Source: an uncultured Gammaproteobacteria bacterium
GTDB lineage: Bacteria; Pseudomonadota; Gammaproteobacteria; Methylococcales; Methylomonadaceae
Length of the DNA: 64,000 bases
Assembly (NCBI GenBank): GCA_963848675.1
Contig: CAWKEY010000038.1
Span: forward strand, 19,114-83,113
Reading direction: 5' to 3'
Shown here: positions 50,195-57,485 of the stretch, one piece after another
Layout: every line of letters starts with the position of its first letter
How positions within the stretch are numbered: the stretch's first letter is position 1
Notes under the pieces: generated by a model
What the model was told of the DNA's origin: nothing
Databases searched by the model: none
The model's input: the letters and a program-made list of their open reading frames with translations, nothing else
Translations under genes and position numbers: made by a program

Positions 50195-50455
50195 TCATGG
50201 TGGAGCGTCAGGCGGCAGGACACTGAGCGGCACGGATCGGTCGTAGAGTGTCTCGGGAGCGATGTCCAGATCGCCTGGCCAACACACCGTGTCCAAGGCA
50301 ATGAATGCCTGCTTGAATAAAGCGACATCCTGCAAGCGCGTAAATACACCCCGACTCAGATAGGGCCGCGCATCAAACAAACGATGATCTCCGGTATTGA
50401 ACCAAAGCTCCAGAGAGAAATCCTCCCGGGCAATTACACGGACGACGGCTTCCAT
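50195..50455 (-). CDS. DUF2442-family small protein (cassette 1)
   Basis: 86 aa with C-terminal block LDTVCWPGDLDIAPETLYD, shared with 53451-53729 and 56769-57008. Confidence 0.7.
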   Translation of the reverse strand: MEAVVRVIAREDFSLELWFNTGDHRLFDARPYLSRGVFTRLQDVALFKQAFIALDTVCWPGDLDIAPETLYDRSVPLSVLPPDAPP

Positions 50456-50463
50456 GGTCTCTC

Positions 50464-50732
50464 CTAGCGCAAGGGATCAATGGCAAATGGCGTCTGGCCA
50501 TTGACGGCCAGCTCCCAATCTGCCAGTAAAGATTCTCGATGAATTTCGACCCACGCCTGTACCAGACGTGTTTTTGCAACAGGAATTTCTCCACTCAGAA
50601 TTGCTTCATCAAGAATGGAAAAACTGCCTCATGGCCCTGGTACTTCGCATGGATATGGGGCAGTTTGTGTCTTTCATCATCATAAAAGTAAAGGCAAATG
50701 ATGATACCGTAAAACATGCTAATTGTAGGCAT
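50464..50732 (-). pseudogene. DUF4160-family gene, frameshifted (cassette 1)
   Basis: MPTISMFYGIIICLYFYDDERHKLPHIHAKYQGHEAVF, then a -1-nt shift in an A5/T5 run (50619-50623), then SILDEAILSGEIPVAKTRLVQAWVEIHRESLLADWELAVNGQTPFAIDPLR. It is colinear with the intact copy at 57017-57286. Confidence 0.7.
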
Positions 50733-51007
50733 GGCAAACCTCTGCAGGGAAACTGTGCCCAATTGTAGCCCATCCGAACGAGAATCAATAGGCGTCTGTC
50801 ACCACCTAATAAACTCGCGTGGGCAATGGTGGTGCACAGGCTATCGTGAAATAGGCAACTACTCAACGTAAATTACGGAATCTGGTCTCGTGAATTTCGC
50901 AAACTCTTCACGTAAAACCCGGAAAAGCTGCGGGCGTTACAGGCAATATCCCCGACCCCAGCACCACAGAGGCTATGGAATTCGAGGATTGTCGATTCAG
51001 ATGGTTA

Positions 51008-51039
51008 GCGTGGGCACGAACCGCGTGTGCCCACCCTAC
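51008..51039. repeat. REP unit, copy 2
   Basis: GCGTGGGCACGAACCGCGTGTGCCCACCCTAC. Confidence 0.75.
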
Positions 51040-51079
51040 AGACTTGTTGATTTTGCGTCTATTGGTCGCTTTAACAAGA

Positions 51080-51162
51080 TCACGTCTTTGTACGCTTTTA
51101 ACATATAACATGTTGATTATTAGATGAATTCAAGTTTAAGGTAGCAGTATTGGAGTCTGACC
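51080..51162. repeat. ~80-nt repeat normally flanking the 3' end of a DUF2442 gene (partner at 53393-53463)
   Basis: TCACGTCTTTGTACGC.TTT.ACATATAACAT.TTGATT...GTTTAAGGTAGCAGTATT.GAGTCTGACC in both copies. Here the gene itself is missing, replaced by the MITE. Confidence 0.65.
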
Positions 51163-51296
51163 CGAGGTGATTTTGATGTGTCATTCCGAGCAGAGCGAGG
51201 AATCTTGAAGGCTAGACGCATTATCCAACATTTAAGATTTCTCCCGTTGGTCGAAATGACAGCAAAACAAAGAGTGTACGGGAAAACGCGCTGAAT
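51153..51296. repeat. MITE-like element, copy 2
   Basis: GAGTCTGACCCGAGGTGATTTTGATGTGTCATTCCGAGCAGAGCGAGGAATCTT...TCGAAATGACAGC...CGCGCTGAAT. Confidence 0.7.
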
Positions 51297-51304
51297 GGTT
51301 ACGA

Positions 51305-51359
51305 TCAAGGCAGCTTAACCAGTGCGGCAACAATACCAATCGATAGTGCCATCAATCCA
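51305..51359 (-). pseudogene. DUF1640-family gene, 3'-terminal 17-codon fragment cut by an IS
   Basis: Encodes ...LMALSIGIVAALVKLP-stop and is nearly identical at the DNA level to 56293-56347. Homology stops at 51359. Confidence 0.65.
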
Positions 51360-56141: not shown

Positions 56142-56284
56142 GAGTCAGGCCCGAGGTGATTTTGATGTGTCATTCCGAGCAGAGCGAGGAATCTTAAGCC
56201 TGAACAGTGTCTCCAGCGCTTAAGATTCCTCCCTGTGGTCGAAATGACAGCAAAACAAAGAGTGTACGGGAAAACGCGTTGAAT
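56142..56284. repeat. MITE-like element, copy 3
   Basis: Nearly identical to 51153-51296, and located at the same position relative to the DUF1640 stop codon. Confidence 0.7.
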
Positions 56285-56292
56285 GGTTACGA

Positions 56293-56595
56293 TCAATGCA
56301 GCTTAACCAGTGCAGCAACAACACCAATCGATAGTGCCATCAATCCACCTAACTTAATTATTAGCCGCTGTTCAAGCCGGATAAAACGCCAATCCACTTG
56401 GGCAAAACCCGTAATCATTTCTCGTCGCAGGGATTCAACTTCACGATGCAAGTCCTCTTTGGTCGCCAAATCCTTTAAATTAATCTCCAGCACATCAGAA
56501 AGCGCAGTGGCCTCGGCTTTCGCTTGTGCAGCAGGAACGCCGGCCTCTTTCAAGGTGTTGGCGAATTTCAATGTATCGAACGTAATCGTCGCCAT
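56293..56595 (-). CDS. DUF1640-family coiled-coil membrane protein
   Basis: MATITFDTLKFANTLKEAGVPAAQAKAEATAL... with a C-terminal TM helix. Confidence 0.65.
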   Translation of the reverse strand: MATITFDTLKFANTLKEAGVPAAQAKAEATALSDVLEINLKDLATKEDLHREVESLRREMITGFAQVDWRFIRLEQRLIIKLGGLMALSIGVVAALVKLH

Positions 56596-56688
56596 TGCAT
56601 TTTTCCTAACTCGTCAAAACAATATCGGAGTACATCACAACAAAAAAAACTGCTCCTTAAGTTGATGCGTATGAGGCAGATAAGGGTA

Positions 56689-56721
56689 CGCGTGGGCACA
56701 AACCGCGTGTGCCCACACTAC
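56689..56721. repeat. REP unit, copy 3
   Basis: CGCGTGGGCACAAACCGCGTGTGCCCACACTAC. Confidence 0.75.
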
Positions 56722-56768
56722 ACCGACTTACCCCATTGATTCGCTACGAATCCGCCGAACTAACGTGA

Positions 56769-57008
56769 TCAGGCCAGCGGTACCGAATCATCGTAGAGCG
56801 TCTCAGGTGCAACATCAATTTCTCCAGGCCAAACAACGGTACCGTAATCCACTCGCACAAGCTCAAAAACGTTTGGCGCCGCAATTCGATTCCACGGCTT
56901 CATCGATAGCAATGGACGCATATCAAACGTACGCCGCTCGCCATTGTTGAATTCAAGATCAAGTTGAAATTCCGGCAGTACACGAACAGAAATTACATCG
57001 ATCAACAT
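56769..57008 (-). CDS. DUF2442-family small protein (cassette 3)
   Basis: 79 aa with YGTVVWPGEIDVAPETLYDD block. Confidence 0.7.
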   Translation of the reverse strand: MLIDVISVRVLPEFQLDLEFNNGERRTFDMRPLLSMKPWNRIAAPNVFELVRVDYGTVVWPGEIDVAPETLYDDSVPLA

Positions 57009-57016
57009 GGGTTACT

Positions 57017-57286
57017 TCACTGAAGCGGCGCAATACGGAAAGGTTCATCACCGTTAACGGCCAATTCCCAGTCAACAAGCAACTCTTCTTTATGAATCTC
57101 AATCCATGCCTGCACCATTTTGAGTTGCTTGGGAGGAAGCCGCCCGTCCAGGATCGTACCATCCTCAATCGATACCGCTGCCTCTTCACCTTGATAACGA
57201 ACATGAATGTGCGGGAGATGATGCCGTCGATTATCTCGAAAATACATCAAAATAAGAATGCCATAAAACATACTAATCGTCGGCAT
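57017..57286 (-). CDS. DUF4160-family small protein (cassette 3, the only intact copy)
   Basis: MPTISMFYGILILMYFRDNRRHHLPHIHVRYQGEEA...; 8-nt gap to the downstream DUF2442 gene. Confidence 0.7.
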   Translation of the reverse strand: MPTISMFYGILILMYFRDNRRHHLPHIHVRYQGEEAAVSIEDGTILDGRLPPKQLKMVQAWIEIHKEELLVDWELAVNGDEPFRIAPLQ

Positions 57287-57485
57287 GGAGGACCTCAAAC
57301 AAATTAAGTCCAGTGATTCTAGCCCAAATTAAAAAGAAATAACAGGAGCCAGGAAATTTTACATAAACTGTCAATAGGCAAAGAAGGCGTCATGGCATCA
57401 ACAACCAATGGGCATAAAAAAACCACCCCTGGTTTCCCAAGGGCGGTTCCGTTTTTTAGGGCTTGCGATCAGTCTGAAGATTTTT

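Follow-up and report, generated by a model that had tools for sequence, protein, structure and literature searches.

What are the small two-gene cassettes that recur, in different states of decay, within a few kilobases of a Methylomonadaceae chromosome, and why is it the upstream gene of the cassette that is broken? The stretch of DNA in which we have examined these questions, referred to below as the window, comprises 64,000 nucleotides (nt) from an uncultured gammaproteobacterium (GenBank assembly GCA_963848675.1, contig CAWKEY010000038.1, positions 19,114 to 83,113); the cassettes, which follow the design of a DUF4160 gene upstream of a DUF2442 gene, are located on its minus strand and are called here cassettes 1, 2 and 3, in the order of their coordinates. 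Taken as a whole, the region is very probably best explained by three representatives of DhiTA, a family of toxin-antitoxin (TA) systems of type II, in which the DUF4160 protein is the toxin and the DUF2442 protein is the antitoxin; the genes are called by these names throughout the text. The loss of the toxin before the antitoxin is general in the DUF4160/DUF2442 subfamily that we have sampled.

Cassette 3 had been described as intact in a preliminary description of the locus and is indeed so: its toxin gene (57017-57286, minus strand; 89 amino acids, aa) begins with MPTISMFYGI..., carries the motif HLPHIH and matches the Pfam family PF13711 (DUF4160) over profile positions 1-65 of 65 (E=2.7e-26), while its antitoxin gene (56769-57008, minus strand; 79 aa), which starts after a spacer of 8 nt from the toxin stop codon, matches PF10387 (DUF2442; E=1.4e-12). 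Both genes can be called DhiT-like and DhiA-like, respectively, and the cassette is complete and presumably active. The antitoxin genes of cassettes 1 and 2 are also intact and of the DUF2442 type (E=1.2e-15 and 4e-12), so that the Pfam comparison has confirmed the proposed families for the toxin and for all three antitoxins. At a finer level, the NCBIfam model NF048015 (toxin_DhiT) is matched by the cassette 3 toxin with 98.8 bits and by the repaired toxin of cassette 1, described below, with 97.7 bits (E about 1e-28). Direct comparison with the pair of the Thermus plasmid pTthSNM3-3d gives 48% identity for the window toxin (E=9e-26) and 33-34% for the window antitoxins (E=2e-12 for cassette 3, at 33%, and 5e-13).

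Upstream of the toxin genes of cassettes 3 and 1, the decamer GGGCTA(G/C)AAT occurs at 57316-57325 and 50762-50771 (minus strand), exactly 29 nt 5' of the ATG in both cases. It contains a -10-like hexamer, TAGAAT in cassette 3 (57316-57321, minus strand, inside the conserved GGGCTAGAAT) and TACAAT in cassette 1 (50762-50767, minus strand, inside GGGCTACAAT), and is plausibly a -10 promoter element; the motif was found by eye and by alignment, a simple promoter scan having returned no match upstream of the toxin genes.

The preliminary description had regarded the cassettes as candidate uncharacterised TA-like or addiction modules, adding that no experiment had defined a function for either family. 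The latter statement is out of date, as DhiTA has been tested in Dickeya, in Thermus and in a Bacteroides prophage; the former reading, with a harmful upstream protein and a downstream neutraliser, agrees with these published experiments on homologues. In Dickeya dadantii 3937 (Boss et al. 2021), DhiT inhibits the growth of both Dickeya and Escherichia coli, and the co-expression of the downstream DhiA abolishes this effect; the two genes are co-transcribed, and their promoter is repressed by approximately 50% by DhiA alone and more strongly by the toxin-antitoxin complex (PMC8198452). In Thermus thermophilus, a plasmid pair called the Persistence-Enhancing Module (Murayama et al. 2025) raises plasmid persistence; no transformants are obtained upon deletion of ORF2, and AlphaFold 3 predicts a heterodimer (PMC12724237). 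In the Bacteroides thetaiotaomicron prophage Wilby 1, the DhiTA toxin slows the growth of E. coli, while the full pair does not (bioRxiv 10.64898/2026.06.25.734096). Furthermore, the DUF4160/DUF2442 pair is already listed in TA surveys, and a comparison of the Menshen defence system has described DUF4160 as an effector domain in NsnC proteins and noted the conserved DUF4160-DUF2442 neighbourhood (PMC12065111). The system is thus already known, named and experimentally validated in homologues, and the window adds members only.

At the level of the module, the mechanism is well supported by this homology. As in the homologues, a single promoter would drive a toxin-first bicistron, the toxin of approximately 89 aa would stop growth, and the antitoxin of approximately 80-90 aa would neutralise it, probably by direct binding; the promoter would be repressed by the antitoxin alone and more strongly by the toxin-antitoxin complex, and on a plasmid or prophage the module would provide post-segregational stabilisation.

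The cassettes of the window resemble each of the known systems in part. The Dickeya locus has the same two families, recognised through the Pfam and NCBIfam models, in the same toxin-first order and only a few nucleotides apart, but its genes overlap by 3 nt, whereas a spacer of 8 nt separates those of the window, and it occurs as one copy, whereas the window has three cassettes, two of which are without a working toxin. In the Thermus plasmid, both partners are homologous to those of the window and occur in the same order, with a spacer of 10 nt; the module is, however, plasmid-borne and stabilises its plasmid, and its toxin belongs to the motif subtype PPHFH, in contrast to HLPHIH. The Bacteroides pair is prophage-borne and has been proposed to maintain the prophage, while the copies of the window are chromosomal, with no phage genes seen nearby; a homologue of the window toxin, with 40% identity, occurs in a Bacteroides phage record. 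In the NsnC proteins of Menshen, DUF4160 is fused to a larger defence protein, whereas in the window it is a free-standing protein of 89 aa with a dedicated antitoxin. Other type II modules, i.e. higBA, hicAB and mqsRA, also encode small proteins with the toxin first, an order that is reversed relative to the classical type II operons; no relationship of sequence or fold between these modules and the window pair has been found.

In cassette 1, the toxin gene is a pseudogene (50464-50732, minus strand) that has lost one nucleotide at the T5 run 50619-50623, the 5-nt homopolymer at which a frameshift had been proposed. The gene is in frame for 38 codons and continues in the -1 frame beyond this run; its N-terminal half (50595-50732) matches DUF4160 profile positions 1-30 (E=1.4e-9), and the addition of one base restores a protein of 89 aa, which shares 63% identity with the toxin of cassette 3 and covers the whole profile (E=1e-22). 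The antitoxin gene that follows after 8 nt (50195-50455, minus strand; 86 aa) has a ribosome-binding sequence of its own, AGGAGA, located 5 nt before its ATG; with its promoter-like motif, cassette 1 would therefore appear to make the antitoxin only. Programmed -1 frameshifting at the T5 run has been considered and rejected: there is no in-frame heptamer of the type X XXY YYZ, and the frameshifts and stops of the relatives are located at many different positions.

In cassette 2, an intact antitoxin gene (53451-53729, minus strand; 92 aa), of which homologues with 82-88% identity have been found, stands next to a stub of the toxin gene. The stub was recognised by comparison with a related locus, L166, where an antitoxin that is 82% identical to that of cassette 2 is preceded, 12 nt upstream, by an intact DUF4160 gene of 86 aa. 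The blastn alignment of the two DNAs (84% identity over 310 nt) begins inside the antitoxin gene and, upstream of the ATG, reaches no farther than 55 nt; since it runs from the antitoxin into the end of the intact toxin gene, positions 53743-53784 (minus strand) correspond to the last 14 toxin codons, reading HMK*QPKPIEPLK* in the window, with one in-frame TAG, and QIKQQPKPIEPLK* in the L166 toxin (asterisks denote stops). Locus L166 itself (positions 1-1788; see also L167-L170), from another genome, has three tandem DUF4160-DUF2442 cassettes, all of which are intact, while in L168 the third toxin of the array is reduced to 63 aa; toxin defects in arrays of several cassettes therefore also occur outside the window.

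The upstream gene of cassette 2 had been described as a stop-riddled relic, in a cassette extending over 53451-53905, and this view holds for the 14 codons and their single stop, but the remainder carries no toxin signal. The proposed relic at 53730-53905 has no match in Pfam (three frames), with a family hidden Markov model (HMM; built from 170 relatives, filters off) or by tblastn (word size 2), and local and global alignments of the DNA against shuffled sequences give no significant signal past the 3' stub: beyond 53784, only two short islands are collinear with the toxin, and their best local score is borderline, being reached by 8 of 500 shuffles. Positions 53785-53947, between the stub and an IS110-family element that begins about 160 nt beyond it, form an AT-rich stretch (28% G+C) that is not recognisably toxin-derived and of which no copy has been found elsewhere. 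The divergence of the stub is no greater than that of the adjoining antitoxin gene; for this reason, the toxin of cassette 2 looks truncated or replaced rather than slowly eroded, and the cassette would hold nothing but an antitoxin gene and a 14-codon stub.

A fourth cassette, supposed to survive as its 3' flank at 51080-51162 (minus strand), has been retained in part: the 83-nt segment is a real duplicate (repeat families D6 and D7) of the flank of cassette 2, but its origin from a lost cassette is only a possibility. The other copy (53393-53463, minus strand) immediately follows the antitoxin gene of cassette 2 on its downstream side and abuts the right end of an ISNCY-family insertion sequence (IS); the two copies, the only ones found, sit on either side of this element and align in blocks of 90% and 97% identity with an indel of 12 nt. 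The duplicate covers only the last 13 nt of the antitoxin gene and 58 nt downstream of it, and, at GGTCAGACTC, adjoins a copy of the 3' end of a DUF1640 gene together with a dispersed palindromic element. If a fourth cassette existed, it has lost both genes and is no example of toxin-only loss. No further copy of either family was found in the 64 kb with the family HMMs or tblastn, and the antitoxins have diverged from one another, as had been noted, and are not recent duplicates: those of the other two cassettes are 45% and 31% identical to that of cassette 3.

In order to place these defects in the context of the family, we have collected 165 related loci (80 from genomes, found via the antitoxin; 80 from metagenomes and 5 viral, both found via the toxin), built HMMs for both families, and scored each copy for frame, stops and coverage. 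Where the sequence extends far enough upstream, 75 loci have an intact antitoxin; 44 of these also have an intact toxin, whereas the toxin is truncated in 12, missing from 9, interrupted by a stop in 7 and frameshifted in 3; three of the nine loci without a toxin at this position are in fact toxin-antitoxin-antitoxin triads. Conversely, where the sequence extends far enough downstream, 72 loci have an intact toxin, and the antitoxin is intact in 71 of them and frameshifted in the remaining one. Approximately 41% of the antitoxins (31/75) are therefore without a working toxin, while the reverse holds for approximately 1% of the toxins, an asymmetry with a Fisher odds ratio of 50 (p=4.5e-10). 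The preferential loss of the upstream gene that the window had suggested is borne out by these counts, as a general pattern of which the window is a good local illustration, and an equal decay of the two partners, which would have counted against the proposal, is not observed.

The cassettes in the flanks of the sampled loci comprise 11 that are complete, 14 in which only the antitoxin works and 2 divergent solo toxins, and the spacer between the two genes has a median of 9 nt in 126 intact pairs. Where the toxins carry stop codons, these are scattered over codons 8 to 69 of otherwise conserved genes, from which it follows that the nonsense events are independent and recent. Against the family profile, the orphan antitoxins score about as high as those in pairs (median 119.8 versus 122.6 bits, p=0.13). 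The order of loss is what the established logic of TA systems would predict, a working toxin making its antitoxin indispensable: the loss of the antitoxin in the presence of an active toxin would kill the cell, whereas the loss of the toxin would be harmless or even advantageous.

Departures from the two-gene design also occur. A toxin gene followed by two different DUF2442 genes in tandem, or two tandem DUF2442 genes without a toxin, are found in L008 (541-1278 and 3001-3463), L036 (2491-3234) and L018 (2368-3647). In L055 (3286-3546, minus strand) and L125 (1826-2086, minus strand) there are divergent DUF4160 genes with approximately 35% identity to the window toxin and no DUF2442 gene downstream, the one in L055 being convergent with a complete cassette; these toxins may use a different antitoxin or none.

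The toxin is highly conserved, and more so than its partner in the cassette: in 126 of 126 intact pairs, it is closer to the toxin of cassette 3 than the antitoxin is to the corresponding antitoxin (medians of 73% and 56%). Its best 120 database matches are 82-92% identical and include proteins named as being from Sideroxydans, Methylococcus, Geobacteraceae, Rhodoferax and Desulfobotulus; among the members of the clusters formed at 90% identity are Gallionella, Simplicispira and Sulfuritalea. The nearest relatives of the cassettes and the shared repetitive extragenic palindromic (REP) sequences point to Methylococcaceae such as Methylobacter. The toxin family is large, with 4805 clusters at 50% identity (E<=0.001), but few of the sequenced plasmids (37 of 72,556 records) and few of the phages (5 of 50,697) carry a member. 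The partial-length representatives at 50% identity, which look like broken toxin open reading frames (ORFs), were not used, as chimeric ORFs form clusters of their own and are over-represented.

The AlphaFold2 model of the toxin consists of five strands that are followed by a long helix, with a predicted local distance difference test (pLDDT) of 79 and a predicted template-modelling score (pTM) of 0.71. A Foldseek search of the PDB and BFVD with this model returned no match (best E 0.05-0.08, template-modelling score, TM, below 0.3), in agreement with the published view of DUF4160 as a domain without a confident structural homologue (PMC12065111). The model of the cassette 2 antitoxin (pLDDT 94) has its best match in the DUF2442 domain of 2auw (probability 1.0, TM 0.64) and also matches 3k8r, both being structural-genomics entries with the DUF2442 fold and no function given; sequence searches of the PDB with the toxin, the antitoxin and the antitoxin profile gave nothing meaningful. 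We tentatively suggest that the toxin could act on a nucleic acid, probably RNA, through its cluster of conserved residues D18, H26, H28, R30 and Y31, although we regard this as somewhat less than an even chance. Weak hints in this direction, besides the residue cluster itself, are that nucleases make up most of the other effector domains of the Menshen NsnC proteins (PMC12065111), and that the Synechocystis DUF4160 protein Ssl2064 was shortlisted as RNA-associated in a Grad-seq study.

The cassettes are located in a repeat- and IS-rich chromosomal stretch of 7.5 kb, between a phosphomannomutase gene and the gene of a DUF4214 protein, in which the cassettes are accompanied by two insertion sequences, a pair of DUF1640 genes and repeats of two families; the ordinary chromosomal genes around it encode a mannose-1-phosphate guanylyltransferase, the phosphomannomutase, PilT-like ATPases, HemY, MetH, GlyS, AcrB and a large glycosyltransferase. 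The embedding among REPs and IS elements that had been described has been substantiated by the identification of four REP hairpins and of ISNCY- and IS110-family elements. The REP hairpin GTGGGCACGAACCGCGTGTGCCCA has four matches in the 64 kb, against none expected in a pattern search, and none of them is located outside the borders of cassettes 1 and 3: all are read on the plus strand, downstream (50155-50178) and upstream (51010-51033) of cassette 1, and downstream (56692-56715) and upstream (57489-57512) of cassette 3, the last being followed by a terminator-like hairpin. The second repeat is a dispersed, imperfect palindrome of approximately 80-120 nt, with the core TGTCATTTCGACC...CGGAATGACA, that is intergenic and occurs in at least four places in the window (51179-51260, 56168-56249 in the segment 56142-56288, 23032-23123 and 60835-60955).

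The ISNCY-family element (51360-53389, plus strand; transposase 51483-53138) has terminal inverted repeats of 37 nt and scores 486 bits on NF033593, the cut-off of which is 325. A remnant of the 3' end of a DUF1640 gene, 16 codons long (51311-51358), directly borders the left end of the insertion sequence, and a rearrangement or deletion has therefore accompanied the element. The IS110-family element (53948-55565, plus strand, bounds approximate; transposase 54033-55073) is bounded by a perfect inverted repeat of 12 nt and matches NF033542 with 361.9 bits, as well as the Pfam domains DEDD_Tnp_IS110 and Transposase_20; NCBIfam names its transposase as an IS110 family RNA-guided transposase. The transposase gene is followed by approximately 490 nt of non-coding DNA with a perfect 23-nt hairpin (55185-55207/55234-55256), a segment that could encode a guide (bridge) RNA; Rfam has no match in 49900-57700, this segment included, even at E<=1. 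Between cassettes 2 and 3, two genes (55634-55954 and 56293-56595, minus strand) encode DUF1640/CCDC90-like coiled-coil proteins that are 41% identical and have a C-terminal hydrophobic segment, and a copy of the palindromic element is located after 56293-56595. Elsewhere in the window, Rfam recognises group II intron domains (D1-D4, 96.8 bits, and a 3' domain, 41.9 bits) at 10764-10905 and 13041-13188 (plus strand), with some 2.3 kb from one to the other; the DNA between them contains, on the opposite strand (11208-11900), part of a DDE transposase of the ISAzo13 type, and the arrangement may represent a group II intron that an insertion sequence has broken up.

Next to the cassette, about 7 of the approximately 166 related loci have a gene for a Y1 transposase that resembles REP-associated tyrosine transposases (RAYT), in most cases at a distance of 10-130 nt downstream of DUF2442, an adjacency that is far above the expectation for random neighbours. 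These genes match PF01797, and their best NCBIfam model is "REP-associated tyrosine transposase", at 62-68 bits and thus under the cut-off of 80; copies have been seen in L166-L171 (1905-2611), L119 (904-1584), L079 (3248-3928), L012 (3337-4011), L157 (3065-3745), L066 (437-1087), L116 (585-1259) and L018 (4309-4910). The window has no RAYT-like Y1 transposase gene.

Several observations weigh against the assignment to DhiTA or qualify its reach. Both window toxins score below the equivalog cut-off of the DhiT model, which is 100 bits (cassette 3 by 1.2 bits); the validated Thermus toxin, however, scores 90.7 bits, lower than both of them, which indicates that the cut-off marks close relatives of the Dickeya type and not the functional family. 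The antitoxin has no match to any NCBIfam model, and the Thermus module has no visible effect in E. coli (PMC12724237), so that the host range varies. The suggested nucleic acid target is without structural support, the toxin model being unmatched in the PDB and BFVD, and a search of PADLOC-DB with the six small proteins gave no match at E<=0.01. Lastly, the contig is of unknown assembly type, and the single-base frameshift of cassette 1 could be an assembly error.

The last point amounts to a different account of the locus, in which cassette 1 is intact in the organism and the base missing from the T run was dropped in sequencing or assembly, leaving two live cassettes and one orphan. The defect does consist of one base in a homopolymer, in a contig of unknown assembly type, and the rest of the gene is well kept, with the 63% identity to cassette 3, no second defect and a full Pfam match once repaired; yet five T's are few for short-read assemblies to go wrong systematically, and, since the related loci commonly show toxin defects of every kind (truncation, a frameshift or a stop in 22 of 75 toxins, with 9 more absent), a true frameshift would be unremarkable; we consider an error here unlikely. 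It is less likely still that the DUF2442 genes serve a separate role, such as a regulatory one, and that this role, and not neutralisation, keeps the orphans intact. The equal conservation of orphan and paired antitoxins would fit such a role, as would the occurrence of toxin-antitoxin-antitoxin triads and antitoxin-antitoxin pairs (L008, L036 and L018), the deposition of 2auw, in which the DUF2442 fold makes up approximately half of a chain of 151 residues, as a "putative DNA binding protein", and the repression by DhiA alone of its promoter (PMC8198452). That 71 of 72 intact toxins keep their partner shows, on the other hand, that the primary link of the antitoxin is to the toxin, and the good conservation of the orphans is equally expected if the toxins were lost recently, as the single nonsense codons in conserved toxins suggest.

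Whichever state cassette 1 is in, the benefit that the modules confer can be read in other ways than addiction or stabilisation. They could be mainly anti-phage modules that act by abortive infection, since DUF4160 is an effector domain of the Menshen anti-phage system (PMC12065111), TA modules are often defence elements and the cassettes cluster with mobile elements; we find this rather improbable as their main role, because the phenotypes that have been measured in homologues are growth inhibition, plasmid persistence and prophage maintenance only, the PADLOC-DB search mentioned above was negative, and a defence role leaves the 41% of broken toxins unexplained, although abortive infection is compatible with the TA mechanism itself. 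A further reading, speculative and in our judgement unlikely, is that DhiTA cassettes travel with REP/RAYT elements and that chromosomes keep toxin-less DhiA genes as an anti-addiction set against incoming plasmids or prophages that carry DhiT. It is suggested by the position of the REP hairpins, all four copies of which in the window bracket cassettes 1 and 3, by the RAYT-like genes beside the antitoxin, by the occurrence of proteins that are at least 90% identical in genomes named as different genera, and by the stronger conservation of the toxin in every intact pair together with the good conservation of the orphans. Finally, small two-gene units that repeat on one strand with palindromic repeats between them recall the gene cassettes of a chromosomal integron-like array, and TA cassettes are common in chromosomal integrons. 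We have rejected this possibility as scarcely credible: the border repeats are an ordinary REP hairpin and the dispersed palindromic element, which also occurs far from the cassettes, and not attC sites; there is no recombinase (intI) among the annotated ORFs, although not every ORF of the window was scanned; and the cassettes carry their own promoter-like motif.

With the cassettes read as DhiTA modules, the genes of the locus are best named as DhiT/DhiA-family TA components, with two of the cassettes being toxin-null, instead of DUF proteins. What DhiT does is a question that has already been posed in the literature, and the window makes it no more testable. For the family, the counts provide a quantitative example of toxin-first decay where the toxin has no recognisable fold, and the orphan antitoxins that survive it would be either neutral leftovers or a protection against related incoming toxins.

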